Part shown: positions 3,548 through 22,300 of the stretch, in pieces
Position numbering within the stretch: position 1 is the stretch's first letter
How the letters are laid out: each line of letters begins with the position of its first letter
IMG/VR virus record: IMGVR_UViG_3300039155_000018
Location: 64,001-86,300 of that record
Source: a virus
Taxonomy: Duplodnaviria > Heunggongvirae > Uroviricota > Caudoviricetes
DNA length: 22,300 nt
Direction: 5' to 3' (one strand)
Made by a program: the position numbers and the translations under genes
The notes under the pieces: generated by a model
Told to the model about the DNA's origin: nothing
What the model saw: the letters and a program-made list of their open reading frames with translations, nothing else
Databases searched by the model: none

Positions 3548-4936
3548 TTAAATGCCACGATCTTTCATGGCTTTACGGGTGGCCTCGACAGCGGCTTCAG
3601 CAGCAGTCTTGGTGTTTTCAACAACGGCCTCTGTTGCAGCAGCACTTTGTTGTTGGAAAAGGTCAGAACCTTGAACAGCGGCGGATTGCTTAGCAAAACC
3701 AGCACGGACAGTTTCAAAGGTGGCGTCATCAAGAGCTTCCAGAGAAGCAGCTTGAGATTTAGCATCTTCTTCAGAAAGACCAGCAGCAAACAGAGAGGCT
3801 TGCCGATCTTTCAGTTTGGCTTCTTTGGCTTGCAGAGCAGCTTGTTCTTCAGAGGCTTGAGCCTTAGCCAGAGCTTCGGAGAGAGCAGCTTCCTTTTCAC
3901 CAAGGGCAGCCTGTAGGGATTCCATTTGAGCAGTAAGCTCAGAGAATTGAGTAGCAAGTGCGCTCATCTCTACATCTTTAGCGTCTATAGCAGCTTGCAG
4001 TTCTTCTAGTTTCATGTCCGGTTTACCTTTATTAAGTTTAAACATATCTGTGATTGCGGGCTTCATAGGCTCCTCTTTGTTTTCAATTCGACTTAAAGCC
4101 ACTTCTGTAAAATAATCCTGAAAGTCTTCAACCTTCATAATTTTGTCAGCCAAACCTAAAGCAACAGCTTCTTCTGCAAGATACATGTTGGCTTCAGTTG
4201 CTCTGACAGCTTCCTCAGAAATGCCCCTATATTTAGATACATGACTGACGAAATCTTGGTAAGTAACAATAACTTTATCTCGAATACCATCTAAGAAAGA
4301 TTGTTTAAACTTACCATCGTTTTCGTAGGGAACCTTATCAGCCCCTGCTGTAATAAAGATTCGCTCATAACCTTCTTGCTCTAGTTTCTTGGAGTCATTG
4401 TACAAGCGCACAACCACTCCAATACTACCCAACTCTGAGCTAGGTGCTACAATCACCTCGTCAGAGATGGCAGTCCAAACGTATCCAGCCGACGCTGAGT
4501 CTCCATCTACATACGATATGATTCTTACGCCGTTCTCATCTGCAAGCTTTCGTACATACTCAGCAGAAGCAAATGCTTGGTGAGCCTCGCCTCCAGGCGA
4601 GTCAACAAGGAAAGCAACAGTCTTAACTCCGCTGTTAATTACAGCCTTGAAGTCTGCTTTGAATTGTTGGTAGCTAAAGCCACCGCAGTCCATACCCATT
4701 ACAGTTACAGGACGATAAGTCATCGGACCTTCAATGACGAACTGAGCAGCAGAGAATTCTTCGCTCACTTGATAACGAGAGTTCATGCTCTCGCCTTCAT
4801 CACTTAGTTCAACCTTCCTAACTTCTCGATCAGCGCTGCCCGAAAGGTATTTATTAATACTTTCAAAGTCAGGCAGTGCCATTAGTTGAGGACGATTGGA
4901 TAACTTAGCTTGTAACTTAAAAAGTTCGTGAGCCAT
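3548..4936 (-). CDS. Prohead maturation protease (S49/SppA-ClpP fold) fused to a coiled-coil scaffold (462 aa)
   Basis: S49 motifs VDSPGG, ASAGY, GSIGV and AG..K; the C-terminal ~170 aa is Ala/Glu/Gln-rich coiled coil. Confidence 0.9.
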   Translation of the reverse strand: MAHELFKLQAKLSNRPQLMALPDFESINKYLSGSADREVRKVELSDEGESMNSRYQVSEEFSAAQFVIEGPMTYRPVTVMGMDCGGFSYQQFKADFKAVINSGVKTVAFLVDSPGGEAHQAFASAEYVRKLADENGVRIISYVDGDSASAGYVWTAISDEVIVAPSSELGSIGVVVRLYNDSKKLEQEGYERIFITAGADKVPYENDGKFKQSFLDGIRDKVIVTYQDFVSHVSKYRGISEEAVRATEANMYLAEEAVALGLADKIMKVEDFQDYFTEVALSRIENKEEPMKPAITDMFKLNKGKPDMKLEELQAAIDAKDVEMSALATQFSELTAQMESLQAALGEKEAALSEALAKAQASEEQAALQAKEAKLKDRQASLFAAGLSEEDAKSQAASLEALDDATFETVRAGFAKQSAAVQGSDLFQQQSAAATEAVVENTKTAAEAAVEATRKAMKDRGI

Positions 4937-6429
4937 TAGTTCTCCAGATTACTTGTAGAGTTATCTTTTGTTGCATTACTGTCGGAAGTGCCGTTGCCGC
5001 TGCCTTTTACAAGTCCTTCACCAGCTCCAGACGTATACCCAGTTAGCCTCGGAAGGATGTCTTCTATTTTCTCATCCCCTTGGAATACAACAGGCATATT
5101 CGCCTGCTTACAAATCCAGTTAATGGTCTTGGCGTCGCATGGAAGCATCCCGATGGCACCAATCCGTTGGATAAACTTAGAGAGAGTTTCAAGGTCTGGA
5201 GATGACAAATCACCAAAGCGCACTTTAGGGAGAACATCTTTTCTGTTACCGTTTAAAGCAAATAACTGAGGAATCAAGTCGTGATTCAATACTTGCTCAA
5301 TCTCACGAAGAGACATTTCAACAGTAAGAGAAGTTACACCAGAGATGTTCTCTGACAGAGAGTAAGAGCCAGTACCGTCTTGACCAAGTACAAGTTGTTG
5401 AGCAGACAGCGCAGTAAGAATTGCTTTACGGTAGAACTCAATAATGGAGAGGACGTTGTATGCCTTCTGCCCACCTGTTTCTACAGTACCAAGCTTGTAA
5501 AGCTTATTATTGTTCTCGTCTACGTTGCTAGGCAGGATAAGTCCAGCTTGAGCATTCTGGTGGATGTTACGGATAACCTTTTGCCAGAACTGAAACTCAG
5601 CTTTCTTGCCCTCATCAGCATTGTCATCCATCACTTCAGCAGGAATCTCAAGAATGGGAAGACCTTGGAGGTCTTTAACAACACCAACAGCAAGAAACTC
5701 TTCAAGGGATTGTTTAAGTCGCCACGCTTTCCAAGCTCCAACAAGGACGCTTTGTCCTTGAGGACTTTCACCCTTACGTTTATTACGGAACAGAAGGAAT
5801 TTATAGCGAGGGATATCTTTGTAATTCAGCTCCGAGGAATCTTCTACCCTCGTGGGAGTTGTTTGATTGATACCCACAGGCTTTGTGTTATATTGCACAA
5901 GGTGTGTAAGGGATCGTCCTGTTTGTTCATCCCACTTCCAACCGAGAACTGTACGTTGGTCGATCAGGGGTAGACAACGAAGTCCAATCTTTCCATCATT
6001 GAATCTGCTACCAGAGGCAAATGTACGTCTACGGAACACTTTCTCAATAGGAGCAAATCCATATCGCCTCATAGAAACAACTTGCTGAATAAATTCCTCA
6101 AAAGGATGTTCCATATCCTTAAATAGACATTGCTCAAGGAACATCTTCTCATCTTCCAGAGAGTCTTCATACCCTTCAGGAATTTCAACATACCATGGAA
6201 CTTTACAAATAGAAGCATCCACAACATCAAGAGCGGGCTGGATATCTTGATCTTCCGCCATCTTATCAAATGTGTGGATACTTCTAGGGAACTCCAATTC
6301 ATGATTGCAGTTCTCAAGAATTTCTCCCCCTAGAGTGGGAACGCCGTTGAACGACATTTGCCCCAATCTAATTCTGGGGATAGGGCTATCACCCGTTGCC
6401 TCAGAAGAGGCTTCAATGTTTTCGGCCAA
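4936..6429 (-). CDS. Portal protein (497 aa, TTG start)
   Basis: AGGAGG RBS upstream of the TTG; lies between terL and the protease; size and helical content fit a portal. Confidence 0.85.
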   Translation of the reverse strand: MAENIEASSEATGDSPIPRIRLGQMSFNGVPTLGGEILENCNHELEFPRSIHTFDKMAEDQDIQPALDVVDASICKVPWYVEIPEGYEDSLEDEKMFLEQCLFKDMEHPFEEFIQQVVSMRRYGFAPIEKVFRRRTFASGSRFNDGKIGLRCLPLIDQRTVLGWKWDEQTGRSLTHLVQYNTKPVGINQTTPTRVEDSSELNYKDIPRYKFLLFRNKRKGESPQGQSVLVGAWKAWRLKQSLEEFLAVGVVKDLQGLPILEIPAEVMDDNADEGKKAEFQFWQKVIRNIHQNAQAGLILPSNVDENNNKLYKLGTVETGGQKAYNVLSIIEFYRKAILTALSAQQLVLGQDGTGSYSLSENISGVTSLTVEMSLREIEQVLNHDLIPQLFALNGNRKDVLPKVRFGDLSSPDLETLSKFIQRIGAIGMLPCDAKTINWICKQANMPVVFQGDEKIEDILPRLTGYTSGAGEGLVKGSGNGTSDSNATKDNSTSNLEN

Positions 6430-11245: not shown

Positions 11246-11273
11246 GCTCTAATCCAGACTGAGCTACGAGAAT
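11246..11273 (-). pseudogene. tRNA 5' fragment (acceptor strand and D-arm only)
   Basis: AUUCUCG-UA-GCUC-AGUCUGGAUUA-GAGC is a normal tRNA 5' third; no anticodon arm, T-arm or matching 3' acceptor strand follows. Confidence 0.6.
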
Positions 11274-11276
11274 ATA

Positions 11277-11350
11277 TGGTGCCCACACTCCGTAACGCTC
11301 GGAGGACTAATACTTACAAGGTACTTGTTATACTATTTAACTATGTGGGC
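11277..11350 (-). tRNA. tRNA-Thr(UGU) with non-canonical D- and T-loops
   Basis: GCCCACA/UGUGGGC + A + CCA; D-stem GUUA/UAAC; anticodon arm AGUAC-CUUGUAA-GUAUU; T-arm CUCCG-AGCGUUA-CGGAG; 74 nt. Confidence 0.85.
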
Positions 11351-11358
11351 TTATGGGA

Positions 11359-11433
11359 GGGATTGTTCGGGAATCGAACCCGAGTCTCCGTCTGTGCCGA
11401 CGGTGCGCTATACCACATTATCACCAACAACCC
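11359..11433 (-). pseudogene. Degenerate tRNA (Ala-like G3-U70, 6-nt anticodon loop, no encoded CCA)
   Basis: Acceptor GGGUUGU/ACAAUCC; canonical T-arm UCGGG-UUCGAUU-CCCGA; anticodon arm CCGUC-GGCACA-GACGG. Confidence 0.7.
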
Positions 11434-11436
11434 CAA

Positions 11437-11485
11437 AAAGAATCTTTCTTTTAAAGACTTCACAATCCCTAAAAGAAAGATTCCC
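11437..11485 (-). other. Long hairpin (14-bp perfect stem + 6 bp, GUGA tetraloop): RNase III site or terminator
   Basis: GAAUCUUUCUUUUA/UAAAAGAAAGAUUC plus GGGAUU-GUGA-AGUCUU, followed by U5. The G-U pairs and GNRA loop form only on the minus strand. Confidence 0.75.
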
Positions 11486-11499
11486 GTAATAGATGAAAC

Positions 11500-11657
11500 T
11501 ACAATACGAGAATCTTAATGCCAGCTCTGAGCGGGAGGAGGACACCCGGAGCTGACGGAGAGCTACCGTTAGGGAGTACCTTTCGGTAGCGGTTTCTGAC
11601 GCAAGGAGAAAACGTCAGAAGGAGAGAAATCAAACAATACGATTTAACACCACATGA
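11500..11657 (-). ncRNA. Candidate sRNA with multiple exposed CUCC motifs
   Basis: Directly downstream of a promoter; no credible ORF; three hairpins with loops UUUUCUCCUUG, UACUC/GAAA and UGUCCUCCU. Confidence 0.6.
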
Positions 11658-11663
11658 AAGGTA

Positions 11664-11692
11664 AGTCTAACATATATTTCTATACAAGTCAA
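11664..11692 (-). promoter_or_regulatory. Sigma70-like promoter of the ncRNA island
   Basis: TTGACT-N17-TAGACT. Confidence 0.7.
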
Positions 11693-11719
11693 TAGGTTGA
11701 TAAATTATTTTAATAATAT

Positions 11720-11899
11720 CTAGTAAGGTCTGACTTGACGAAAAAGACTTTCAGTTTCTGTGATCCCTTCAAACTGGTATTCCCAACGGAACACAGGTTC
11801 AATCATTTCTTCCTCAGAAATCAGGATGTGCTTTAGGTCTTCTTCGTCAAGCTGTTCTAGGAAGTCAGATACTTCCTGATAAATTGTATCTGTAGTCAT
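11720..11899 (-). CDS. Hypothetical acidic protein (59 aa, MTTDTIYQEVSDFLEQL...)
   Basis: Hand-translated, below the ORF-track cutoff; downstream of a promoter; weak RBS. Confidence 0.55.
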   Translation of the reverse strand: MTTDTIYQEVSDFLEQLDEEDLKHILISEEEMIEPVFRWEYQFEGITETESLFRQVRPY

Positions 11900-11950
11900 A
11901 TTTATTCTTCATGTTAAGTGAATCCTCCAAATTCGTTAGAAACTTTGTAT

Positions 11951-11980
11951 ACTATACCAAACTGAAGAAGAGTTTGTCAA
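11951..11980 (-). promoter_or_regulatory. Sigma70-like promoter
   Basis: TTGACA-N18-TATAGT with TG upstream of the -10. Confidence 0.65.
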
Positions 11981-12222
11981 TACTCTTGAGAATCTTTTTG
12001 AAAGATTTCTGGCTTGCCTGTTCGGTGAATAACATATTGCAGCGCACCAAATCTTTTATAAAATGATCCAGAGATAGCCTCCCTCATTGAATGACAATTT
12101 TCTCCACGAAAGAATAGTGTCGGGCCACTGTGAAAGGAATACACATACCCACACTTATAAAGCTCCTCAGCTTCTAGCAAGCCTTGAAACCAAGCACTAC
12201 GTTTGTTCTTCTTTTTAAACAC
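11977..12222 (-). CDS. Hypothetical protein (81 aa, GTG start)
   Basis: AGGAG RBS; packs with its neighbours. Confidence 0.7.
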   Translation of the reverse strand: MFKKKNKRSAWFQGLLEAEELYKCGYVYSFHSGPTLFFRGENCHSMREAISGSFYKRFGALQYVIHRTGKPEIFQKDSQEY

Positions 12223-12225
12223 TTT

Positions 12226-12537
12226 TCAACTCCTCTTTAGATTCTTGGAAGAAGCGTGTTCGATTACAATGGCGCCATCAATGGATTCCCGAGCCGTCTT
12301 ATAGACAGAAAACTCATAATTAGTAAACGGACTAACACAACGCCAATACTTCTTGTGTTTACAAAGCCAATTTGGATGTGCTTCGATAAAGTCCATACGC
12401 TCTTTGTCTTTATTCTCGTTTACTGTCTGCAACAAATTACGAATCACAGCAATTGCACGACGCTGGTCTGGTGTTCCCTCCGAAAGAGCACACTCGATTT
12501 CTTTAAACCACCACTGCCCTTCATTAAACTCGTTCAT
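12226..12537 (-). CDS. Hypothetical protein (103 aa, start moved to MNEFNEG)
   Basis: GGAGG RBS precedes the ATG at 12537; short overlap with the upstream gene. Confidence 0.7.
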   Translation of the reverse strand: MNEFNEGQWWFKEIECALSEGTPDQRRAIAVIRNLLQTVNENKDKERMDFIEAHPNWLCKHKKYWRCVSPFTNYEFSVYKTARESIDGAIVIEHASSKNLKRS

Positions 12538-12781
12538 ACATCTTCCTCCACTCTTCATATTCTCCGTAAGGATCAAGACACTCTAACATAAACCAGTAGA
12601 AATCTTGATCCAGATACCCGTTGTATATCCCATCTATGAAGATTACATGCTCTCCTGTGGGATGGTTAGGATCAATGTAAATCCTACCCACTGAAATGTC
12701 AAGATATTTTGCTATGAAGCAAATTTCTTTTCTGAAATCTTTCTGTTCCTCAGATTCGTAGGTGTTTAGGTTTATTTTCAC
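12524..12781 (-). CDS. Hypothetical protein (85 aa)
   Basis: Directly follows the polymerase-like gene. Confidence 0.65.
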   Translation of the reverse strand: MKINLNTYESEEQKDFRKEICFIAKYLDISVGRIYIDPNHPTGEHVIFIDGIYNGYLDQDFYWFMLECLDPYGEYEEWRKMYERV

Positions 12782-12787
12782 GTAAGA

Positions 12788-14143
12788 TCACTTCTTGTCA
12801 ATTTTACAGAAGGTTGTGTCACCTAGAACAGTTTTCCACGCTTGCAGCATGGCATCTCTAAGGTCATCCTCTCCGCTACTCTTCACGATTGCAGAATCGT
12901 GGTATGTGAGGATAGTGTATCCTTTCTGAATCATCGTATCAACCACTTCCATCATAATCTTACTATCCGTGTTCTGGAGGAACACACCTTGGTCAGAGAA
13001 GAATTTCTCTGCAATCCAATCGTTATGCTCTTGAACAGCATCCAACACGAACTGCGAGCTAATTTTCCCTAGGCCAAAGAAGTCTTGTTCCTCTGTGGTT
13101 TTCCCTGCATCTGTCCTAATCTTATTGGATAACCCACTGATTGCTTGCTTCCTATCAACGCTGTTCATCCCAATCAGAATGGCCAGCTTGGACAGATTCC
13201 GAAGAGGGTCATGCTTCTTTCCTGTGAGTTTTTCTTTATAACTTACATCTTCTTGGTTAACAGGTACAAATGAAAGATCGGCACCATAAGGGCTAAAATC
13301 CTCCCCCATTACGTCCTTGACGTTGAAGCCGTCATATGAGTACAGAATCTGATAGCATATATTTGGATGAATTGCGCTGTAATCAAGCTCTACTACTGGC
13401 TCATCATCAATAGTCAAGAATTCAGAGCGAAGCTTCTGGGGTAGTAACTGTACTCCGCCACCCTGTGCATAGATTCTTCCGGCGATCTCCATAGAGTCAA
13501 GGAACACCCTTTTGTATTCCACATCGGCAATAGCCTTACCATTGAACTTGATGTTTGCTCCAGATAAGCTCTCATTAAATTCCATAACTTTACTCCTGAT
13601 TTCTTTAATACCGACTTTACCTTTTGTGCTAAGAGTTTGTTGTGTTTCTCTATTCCGCACTTCAACGCATTCCGTCTTCTCTATCTCATCCCAGAGATTC
13701 CCGAATTCTTTGTTTGAATTCCACAGTTCTAATGCTCTGTGACGAAATACTACACAAGAGGACATGGTTCTCTCAGGAACCCTTTTACCATTCTCAATCT
13801 TCCAAGAGATGACATATCCTTTGTAAATGTCTATGTATGACTTCTCTTCAAGGAACTCAAGAAGCCCCTTAACTCCTCGATAACCAATATCTAACTTATT
13901 TCCCGTGTAGGCGTTCTTGTCAAGTGTAATCCTGAACCCTTTAGCATTCTTCTTCATAGCCCTTGCCATGTTAGATACAAACCACTTAACACCTTTAGAG
14001 AATTTACCATCTGTATGACTAAGCAAGCTATCCACAACAGATTGGTAGTATTTGGATTCGTGATAGAACAAATAGCTTCTTACGCAAGACAGAGACAGGG
14101 AGTGTACCTGTATCTCATCCATACTGCTTAATTCATAAATCAA
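12788..14143 (-). CDS. Family-A-related (TV-Pol-like) nucleic acid polymerase (451 aa)
   Basis: GRIY..GGG.Q.LP...R; motif A VVELDYSAIHP; motif B RNLSKLAILIGMN; motif C LTYHDSAIV; no exonuclease domain. Confidence 0.7.
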   Translation of the reverse strand: MIYELSSMDEIQVHSLSLSCVRSYLFYHESKYYQSVVDSLLSHTDGKFSKGVKWFVSNMARAMKKNAKGFRITLDKNAYTGNKLDIGYRGVKGLLEFLEEKSYIDIYKGYVISWKIENGKRVPERTMSSCVVFRHRALELWNSNKEFGNLWDEIEKTECVEVRNRETQQTLSTKGKVGIKEIRSKVMEFNESLSGANIKFNGKAIADVEYKRVFLDSMEIAGRIYAQGGGVQLLPQKLRSEFLTIDDEPVVELDYSAIHPNICYQILYSYDGFNVKDVMGEDFSPYGADLSFVPVNQEDVSYKEKLTGKKHDPLRNLSKLAILIGMNSVDRKQAISGLSNKIRTDAGKTTEEQDFFGLGKISSQFVLDAVQEHNDWIAEKFFSDQGVFLQNTDSKIMMEVVDTMIQKGYTILTYHDSAIVKSSGEDDLRDAMLQAWKTVLGDTTFCKIDKK

Positions 14144-14159
14144 TTCATTCTTACTCCTG

Positions 14160-14199
14160 TAGATAGTAGAGAGAAGGGAGAGAGGTAGAGAGAGGGGGG
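14160..14199. repeat. Polypurine/polypyrimidine tract
   Basis: tagatagtagagagaagggagagaggtagagagagggggg; almost entirely purine on the plus strand. Confidence 0.7.
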
Positions 14200-14304
14200 C
14201 TACCTGTATTCCAGTACAAACTCCTCTGTAGCCCGCATGGCTGCTGGGTTTCTCAAAATTATTGTACGATTATTAACCAATCCGTCATACCTCCAAGTCC
14301 CTCA

Positions 14305-14332
14305 ATACTAGCACGGAATGATGATAAGTCAA
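14305..14332 (-). promoter_or_regulatory. Leftward promoter of the divergent region
   Basis: TTGACT-N16-TAGTAT with extended -10 TGn. Confidence 0.55.
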
Positions 14333-14400
14333 TAGGCTAAATGATAAATTCTCCCTATTACTCCTCCCACACCCAATAGAAATTATCCACTACTCCATTC

Positions 14401-14430
14401 TTGACTCCCATATCAAGCACACGCTAAGAT
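14401..14430 (+). promoter_or_regulatory. Rightward promoter of the divergent region
   Basis: TTGACT-N18-TAAGAT, 30 nt upstream of the first plus-strand ORF. Confidence 0.6.
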
Positions 14431-14460
14431 GGCTGAAATTCAACAGAAAGGGGCTAGAAA

Positions 14461-14622
14461 ATGACTAAAGAACGCCACCCAATGTCCTCTTGGTGTGCCT
14501 ACACATCTTTCCTAAAAGAAAAGCTAGGTAGACGCTTGACGCAAGAGGAATGTTCTGAGATGATGCAGCTCTACATCGTAGGAGCGTCTGTTGAAGATGC
14601 TTTGAAACAACTGGAGGAATGA
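14461..14622 (+). CDS. Hypothetical protein (53 aa, MTKERHPMSSWCAY...)
   Basis: Hand-translated; AAGGGG RBS. Confidence 0.6.
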   Translation: MTKERHPMSSWCAYTSFLKEKLGRRLTQEECSEMMQLYIVGASVEDALKQLEE

Positions 14623-21822: not shown

Positions 21823-22300
21823 ATAAGATTCTCTTTGGTAAAGATAAGAATGGTGGATTCAAAGAGTGGCGAATTTCCGTCTTTGGGGATGTGATTGCTA
21901 TCACCCATGGGAAGGAAGGTGGGAAGATGCAGACCAAAACGGAAGTGATCCAAGGTAAGAACATTGGCCGATCAAATGAAACCTCTCCCGAACAACAAGC
22001 TATTCTGGAAGCTGAAAGTCGTTATAAAAAGCAACTTGATAAAGATTATCGAGAAAACAAAGCAGACTTGGAAGAACTTGAAATCCTTCCGATGTTGGCT
22101 AGTGACTATCATAAGCAAGGACATCGGATTGTCTACCCATGCGTTGTTCAACCAAAGCTTGATGGTTGCCGCTGCTTGGCTATTCGTCACGAAGACCATG
22201 TAGAGCTGCGATCCCGTGGAGGTAAGGAGTATACAGTTGCACATATTCAAGACGAACTTATGTGTGTGATGAAGGTTGGTGAAGTGTGGGACGGGGAAAT
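21819..22300 (+). CDS. ATP-dependent DNA ligase, 3'-partial
   Basis: Hand translation from the GTG: MNKILFGKDKNGG...GKNIGRSNETS...PMLA...QPKLDGCRC (motif I)...SRGGK...WDGE (motif III). Absent from the ORF track. Confidence 0.92.
   Translation, partial: MNKILFGKDKNGGFKEWRISVFGDVIAITHGKEGGKMQTKTEVIQGKNIGRSNETSPEQQAILEAESRYKKQLDKDYRENKADLEELEILPMLASDYHKQGHRIVYPCVVQPKLDGCRCLAIRHEDHVELRSRGGKEYTVAHIQDELMCVMKVGEVWDGE

Follow-up and report, generated by a model that had tools for sequence, protein, structure and literature searches.

A divPolA2-type minimal polymerase with a winged-helix-like head at the divergent gene junction of a Felix-O1-like virus

On the evidence of profile, sequence and structure matches, the 451-residue protein encoded on the minus strand of the window (i.e. 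the whole 22,300-nucleotide stretch of DNA analysed here, which is the last 22.3 kb of the 86.3-kb record of a Felix-O1-like virus) belongs to the published divPolA2 family, and this copy adds one member of a kind already known. The interest lies in what the family makes rather than in this particular copy. Our best explanation, to which we give a probability of about 0.45 when all its parts are taken jointly, is that the enzyme may be a site-specific, chain-starting primase or transcriptase. The name divPolA2 was given to the diverged PolA that barbaviruses and related phages encode alongside a regular DNA polymerase (DNAP), with AUR84708 from Vibrio phage 1.063.O as the reference protein (Yutin et al. 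2024, Virol J 21:200, PMC11348598). Membership is established by the match of our family profile to the AUR84708.1 gene in MG592441.1 (E-value 5.7e-51), together with matches of barba phage proteins to the polymerase at the level of sequence (tblastn, 2e-10) and structure (Foldseek, 1.7e-24). [quoted passage not shown] Our literature searches found no later work on divPolA2 or on its homologue in ICP1. The original prediction for this gene, in which no established role was known for it in lytic myoviruses, holds on this point.

The minus-strand frame of 451 codons is uninterrupted, and all three palm motifs that had been reported as intact in it were found again (motif B as LRNLSK, aa 314-319; the remaining positions are given in Table 1). 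The TTG start codon is kept in three relatives (55-70% identity), with ATG in one of these. The gene is present as a single copy in the phage genome and its product corresponds to phrog_4756 (PHROGs, E-value 1e-83), for which that database assigns no function. Pfam contains no family that matches the whole protein or its N-terminal domain, and HMMER searches of PDB sequences, with either the single sequence or the profile as a query, returned chance-level matches only. Directly 3' of the polymerase gene there is an 85-aa ORF (12524-12781, minus strand), a member of phrog_1541 (E-value 1e-12, likewise with no assigned function), which has no counterpart at the equivalent position in more distant relatives.

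Table 1. Features of the polymerase gene and of the region upstream of it, in coordinates of the window
Feature	Position	Strand	Basis or remark
divPolA2-type minimal polymerase gene	12788..14143	-	451 aa, TTG start, stop codon 12788-12790
Polymerase core: reduced thumb, palm, small fingers (aa ~153-451)	12791..13687	-	VIA and Foldseek matches
Motif C, YHDS (aa 414-417)	12893..12904	-	H415 and D416 invariant
Motif B / O-helix (aa 315-327): R315, K319, L323, N327	13163..13201	-	family alignment
Motif A, ELDYSAIHP (aa 252-260)	13364..13390	-	catalytic Asp D254; H259 at the position of the steric gate E710
A-G-R-I-Y (aa 221-225; family consensus GGRxY)	13469..13483	-	R223 invariant, aligned to Pol I R668
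N-terminal winged-helix-like domain (aa ~30-150)	13694..14056	-	domain model and VIA matches
Divergent intergenic control region between leftward and rightward arms	14144..14460	.	GC skew changes sign here
Shine-Dalgarno sequence, AGGAG	14154..14158	-	10 nt 5' of the TTG start; from sequence
Sigma-70-like promoter, TTGACT-16-TAGTAT with upstream TG, directed at the polymerase gene	14305..14332	-	consensus match only

The sigma-70-like promoter upstream of the gene, whose -35 TTGAC is common to two relatives, suggests early expression by the host RNAP. The ~50 nt of mRNA leader ahead of the Shine-Dalgarno sequence (14160-14210) form a G-poor, C/U/A-rich tract (CCCCCCUCUCUCUACCUCUCUCCCUUCUCUC on the mRNA), which may enhance translation or pair with a nearby small RNA of the CUCC type; three relatives have leader tracts of comparable composition and dissimilar sequence. 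A structured 5' leader was considered and dropped, as the predicted fold is less stable than that of shuffled sequences (z +1.9) and the leader is predicted to be unstructured. Within the same leader, a hairpin-like element CCCAGC...GCGGG (14225-14245, minus strand) recurs in three relatives with stems of differing sequence (alignment columns ~310-340), and may be a conserved RNA structure.

An exhaustive HMMER search with the E-value threshold of 1e-3 retrieved homologues from 2628 clusters (defined at 50% identity, one representative each), and tblastn detected the gene in 242 deposited phage genomes, with every match below 33% identity. The carriers comprise Rheinheimera barbaviruses and phages of Vibrio (including ICP1, ORF100), Aeromonas, Pseudoalteromonas, Shewanella and Pseudomonas. 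In an alignment of 104 members, with identity as low as 24%, residues G222, R223, R239, D254, Y286, K319, H415 and D416 are invariant, and R315 of motif B is conserved in 102. This pattern indicates that the enzyme is under selection. The gene encodes a genuine protein, conserved well above chance, and its residues suggest that it is probably catalytically competent. A search for longer fused forms of the polymerase found none, which is weak evidence, and shape-based and feature-based searches of the ESM Atlas returned only unnamed clusters. The contig of one distant relative carries a reverse-transcriptase gene (RVT_1, 11261-12379) about 3 kb from its divPolA2 gene.

The AlphaFold2 model calculated with the family alignment has a pLDDT of 96.5 and a pTM of 0.92. 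Among the Foldseek matches listed for the PDB, through rank 49, all are family A DNAPs (best E-value 3.5e-7), and the top 21 matches of a VIA structural search against representatives are either family A DNAPs or single-subunit T7-like RNAPs. The original prediction of a stand-alone minimal polymerase of the family A/T7 RNAP fold, with a family A palm, is therefore upheld by the model and by both searches. The VIA Z-values for DNAPs (apicoplast Pol 13.4, Aquifex Pol I 12.7, Klenow 12.0) are tied with those for RNAPs (yeast mitochondrial RNAP 12.6, T7 RNAP 11.2, N4 mini-vRNAP 8.3, N4 RNAP II 7.0), and thus the fold alone does not discriminate between DNA and RNA as the product, which counts against our best explanation. 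The match to the 404-aa chain of N4 RNA polymerase II also makes it unsafe to argue, as had been done, that the protein is too small for a T7-type RNAP.

The structural alignments to polymerases begin at about residue 153 and extend to residue 451. In the model an N-terminal globular domain occupies the place of the canonical thumb, and a single helix (179-193) is seen before the hairpin, where TV-Pols have a thumb of two antiparallel coiled-coil helices. When the N-terminal 156 residues were modelled separately (pLDDT 92.9), almost all of the 50 best VIA matches were winged-helix domains, with modest Z-values (up to 5.9), the list including CodY, CAP/Crp, MarR, Fur/PerR, ORC/Cdc6 and ribosomal winged-helix proteins. 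The succession of secondary structure elements (helix, strand, helix, helix, long beta wing) is consistent with a winged helix. Judging from the model, the head of the polymerase is winged-helix-like and of a DNA-binding type, and it is this domain (residues ~30-150), instead of an exonuclease, that accompanies the polymerase core, in agreement with the earlier remark on the lack of an exonuclease. The modest Z-values of the winged-helix matches are a further point against the site-specific enzyme that we prefer.

To place the active-site residues we relied on an hhalign alignment to E. coli Pol I, short and of low probability yet colinear, and on comparison by eye; this basis of the motif equivalences counts against our best explanation. 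The residue numbers of Pol I and T7 RNAP were verified on their sequences. The alignment pairs R223 with R668, Q232 with Q677, R239 with R682, D254 with D705, and H259 with E710, and no significant match was obtained by hhalign between the family profile and the single sequence of E. coli Pol I, the single sequence of T7 RNAP, or a PolA profile of 5 sequences. The position of E710 is occupied by His in 101 of the 104 members. Four residues after the Lys of motif B (residue 323) 101 members have Leu or Met, where Pol I has F762 and T7 RNAP has M635, and eight residues after it (residue 327) Asn is found in 94, against Y766 in Pol I and Y639 in T7 RNAP. Motif C reads HDS in 92 members and in T7 RNAP (HDE in Pol I), and the hairpin motif is GRxY in the family, GRVY in T7 RNAP and GRLS in Pol I. 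The protein does not look like a canonical family A DNAP, as it has no match to PF00476 and has His, Leu/Met and Asn in place of E710, F762 and Y766; the family profile also shows no match to the PolA of the same phage. It does not look like a regular T7-like RNAP either: Pfam has no family for it, the ribose-sensing Tyr (Y639 in T7 RNAP) is missing, with N327 in its place, and PF00940 has no match on the phage genome, on which point the control genomes are equally silent. Its DNAP-like traits are the DYSxI form of motif A and Q390 at the position of Pol I Q849; these, and the missing Y639, speak against our best explanation. From the replacement of the sugar-selectivity residues of Pol I, combined with the T7 RNAP-like motifs, we infer that the enzyme differs from conventional DNAPs restricted to dNTPs, and that the use of ribonucleotides or a relaxed choice of sugar is more likely.

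The same residues bear on a different reading, which we consider somewhat unlikely, namely that the protein is an accessory primer-dependent DNAP without proofreading, acting in repair, lesion bypass, gap filling or recombination-dependent synthesis beside the replicative PolA. Such a function would agree with the alignment of motif A, the GR...Q...R block and Q390 with Pol I, with DNAPs being the best structural matches, with the annotation of one relative as 'DNA polymerase', and with the inclusion of repair among the options of Yutin et al. (PMC11348598). However, E710 and F762, which exclude ribonucleotides, have given way to other residues, as has Y766, and these substitutions are themselves conserved; the rudimentary thumb makes a firm hold on duplex DNA doubtful, the winged-helix-like head points to the targeting of sites and not of lesions, and no linkage to repair genes was found among the PHROGs-scanned genes of the window.

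Analysis of the genomic context places the polymerase gene at the border of two divergent arms. The leftward arm contains, in this order, the polymerase gene, small ORFs with an ncRNA region, an HNH gene, and genes for terminase, portal, protease and major head protein, while the rightward arm encodes dCMP deaminase, phosphoesterase, RNA ligase, kinase and DNA ligase; an equivalent gene order is found in Pseudomonas phage vB_PsaM_M1 (Ounavirinae). The layout of ORFs agrees with the earlier description of the gene as the first of the leftward arm. The ends of the record (1-135 and 86166-86300, the latter corresponding to 22166-22300 of the window) overlap by 135 bp, of which 131 are identical, which indicates a closed or terminally redundant genome and not a 'linear fragment', as the record is classed; the rightward arm runs on past the end of the window into the start of the record. 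In each of the seven subclade genomes (7/7), at identities down to 32%, no other gene stands between the polymerase gene and a divergent intergenic region of 250-520 nt, which argues for its having been inherited vertically as part of the phage. By contrast, neither ICP1 nor Vibrio phage 1.063.O has the gene at a divergent junction, and this, like the variable neighbourhood described by Yutin et al. (PMC11348598), counts against the preferred reading.

The phage genome encodes a regular PolA elsewhere (PF00476, a frame of 714 aa) and a 598-aa protein with Toprim and DnaB_C domains, i.e. a primase-helicase similar to T7 gp4 (of the DnaG type), so that the divPolA2 enzyme is an accessory protein and not the replicase. 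The primase-polymerase role put forward in the original prediction would come on top of this existing primase-helicase. A regular DNAP is also present beside divPolA2 in vB_PsaM_M1 and ICP1. The fact that the phage already has a primase weighs against our best explanation, as do the results of the search for sites on which the enzyme might act. No phage-specific promoter motif was found with exact k-mers genome-wide or with one-mismatch k-mers in 41 upstream regions, the hunt yielding only Shine-Dalgarno-like words, and the adjacent intergenic region (14100-14500) contains purine-tract repeats only, with no iterons or inverted repeats. The change of sign of the GC skew was set aside as evidence for an origin, because the orientation of genes flips at the same spot. 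Outside the window, in the rightward arm (4927-4990 of the record), we observed an iteron-like array of five perfect tandem copies of the 13-bp sequence TAGTGTCCACTGA.

The position of the gene at the head of a ~66-kb, mostly co-directional block recalls the logic of T7 gene 1, and raises the possibility, which we regard as quite unlikely, of a dedicated minimal phage RNAP that would first be transcribed by the host RNAP and would then transcribe the leftward arm or its ncRNA and tRNA-like genes. The T7 RNAP-like motifs, the Z-values to mitochondrial and T7 RNAPs that equal those to DNAPs, and the match to the small N4 RNAP II are in favor of such a function. Nonetheless, the genome yielded no conserved repeated promoter motif, sigma-70-like promoters occur within the leftward arm, and in distant relatives the gene is located mid-operon; the absence of a Y639 equivalent, of any Pfam family on the protein and of a PF00940 match on the genome (with controls silent too) also argues against it.

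The original prediction had assigned the protein to the TV-Pol family, a label that proved partly correct and imprecise, the precise home of the protein being divPolA2. A scan of the genome of Microcystis phage Ma-LMM01 with our family profile identified one ORF, gp030 (E-value 8.5e-4), which adjoins two transposase genes. A transposase context has been described for the TV-Pol element of Ma-LMM01 (Iyer, Abhiman, Aravind 2008, PMC2579912), and we take gp030 as this TV-Pol by its transposase neighbours and not by an accession in that paper. Comparison of the family profile with the gp030 clade by hhalign gave an E-value of 9e-5 and a probability of 59%, with 171 colinear columns joining all motifs, and a PolA profile of similar depth (5 sequences) gave nothing against the family profile. 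The signatures GGGxQ, D-x4-H, K-x7-N and HD are common to divPolA2 and gp030. In a closer view, gp030 (locus 3747-5267) and six metagenomic relatives possess D-x4-H and K-x7-N as in divPolA2, without the Arg of RxxxK. The common signatures suggest a nucleotide pocket of a non-Pol-I type in divPolA2 and the gp030 group, and divPolA2 is plausibly a branch of TV-Pols or a sister group to them. The residues characteristic of TV-Pols are present in our family as well (R223, D254, D416 and K319 in 104/104 members, R315 in 102/104). The typical TV-Pol context, however, is not seen here, as the PHROGs scan of the genes of at least 80 aa in the window revealed no D5-like helicase, resolvase, integrase or transposase, and neither does the model show a thumb of two helices.

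The similarity to a transposase-linked polymerase could alternatively mean that a small mobile element of the TV-Pol type is lodged in the phage genome, and that the protein replicates this element and does not serve the phage. Homing endonuclease genes and introns are frequent in the leftward arm, and the remote profile similarity and signature residues common with the TV-Pol of Ma-LMM01 are compatible with such an origin. Yet the gene is single-copy, has no integrase, resolvase, transposase or D5-like helicase next to it, and keeps its position in the seven subclade genomes, with neither flanking repeats nor empty sites seen, and we judge this scenario very improbable.

Returning to the preferred reading, i.e. 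a site-specific, chain-starting primase or transcriptase, the activity, substrate and target of this divPolA2 protein with a family A-type fold can be proposed from the sequence as follows. A winged-helix-like head (aa ~30-150) is fused to a stripped-down core of the family A/T7 RNAP fold (aa ~153-451), which lacks a proofreading domain and has no more than a rudimentary thumb, and a host-type promoter in the divergent control region would probably drive early expression of the enzyme. Polymerases of this fold catalyse nucleotidyl transfer by a two-metal mechanism, for which D254 and D416 would be responsible here; by the same chemistry, R315 and K319 would engage the incoming triphosphate, and R223 the primer/template. 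The head would pick the start sites on DNA, and the core would most likely start chains de novo with ribonucleotides, or with a relaxed choice of sugar. One possible job would be leading-strand priming, in the way in which T7 RNAP primes replication at the T7 origin; an alternative job would be the transcription of a subset of phage genes. A more far-reaching version, in which the divPolA2 family would form a novel class of single-subunit enzymes of ~50 kDa, either DNA-dependent RNA polymerases or RNA primases, appears unlikely when its parts are taken jointly. In it, the winged-helix-like head would find the start sites, the His/Asn pair would select ribonucleotides (as against Tyr/His in T7 RNAP), and in this phage the divergent control region would be the place from which the enzyme sets off replication of the leading strand or, alternatively, transcribes the leftward arm.

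The significance of the question follows from the size of the family (2628 clusters and 242 deposited phage genomes, including that of the cholera phage ICP1) and from its strictly conserved active site. If its members make RNA or primers, they would be the smallest known chain-starting enzymes of the T7 RNAP/Pol I fold, would inform the divergence of RNA and DNA polymerase activities, and might provide a compact tool enzyme.

Among the known systems, T7 RNAP and the heterodimeric N4 RNAP II have the same fold (Z-values 11.2 and 7.0), and T7 RNAP also has GRxY, HDS and Met/Leu four residues after the motif B Lys in common with the family; it differs in Y639, which is replaced by Asn, in an unrelated N-terminal domain, and in that no conserved set of promoters was found here. 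CCPol-MP of SCCmec is a primase of the TV-Pol type that retains E710 and F762 and builds DNA primers with dNTPs (Bebel et al. 2020, PMC7581432; see also Rice 2023, PMC10061031). CCPol is the only biochemically tested enzyme of the TV-Pol type, and priming by this fold has no other tested precedent. Like the protein described here, it is a family A polymerase that is exonuclease-poor, belongs to a mobile genome and has a function other than that of a replicase; unlike it, CCPol is close to canonical PolA and needs the OB-fold partner MP, encoded next to it, and the Cch2 helicase. The small ORFs that follow the polymerase gene, compared across four genomes, show no mutual alignment, and three of them have no Pfam match; as they are not conserved between relatives, the presence of a conserved partner gene with an OB-fold (MP/SSB-like) was rejected. 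With TV-Pols in general the protein has in common a minimal core of the family A type, the lack of a nuclease, the invariant Arg of the hairpin, the two catalytic Asp residues and the Lys of motif B, but its gene occupies a core position in a myovirus of the lytic type, and the coiled-coil thumb of two helices is not seen in the model. The closest resemblance is to divPolA2 of Yutin et al., with intact palm motifs, no exonuclease, an N-terminal globular domain for a thumb, a regular DNAP encoded in the same genome, and structural matches to DNAPs and mitochondrial or N4 RNAPs alike. The differences are that the regular DNAP is a PolA here and a PolB in barbaviruses, that the N-terminal domain, for which the paper found no similarity, is winged-helix-like in our model, and that the neighbourhood, described in the paper as variable, is fixed at the divergent junction in the Felix-O1-like subclade. 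What this copy adds to the family is modest: a residue signature, a head that can be read as a winged helix, and a gene position that stays at the divergent junction in the subclade genomes.
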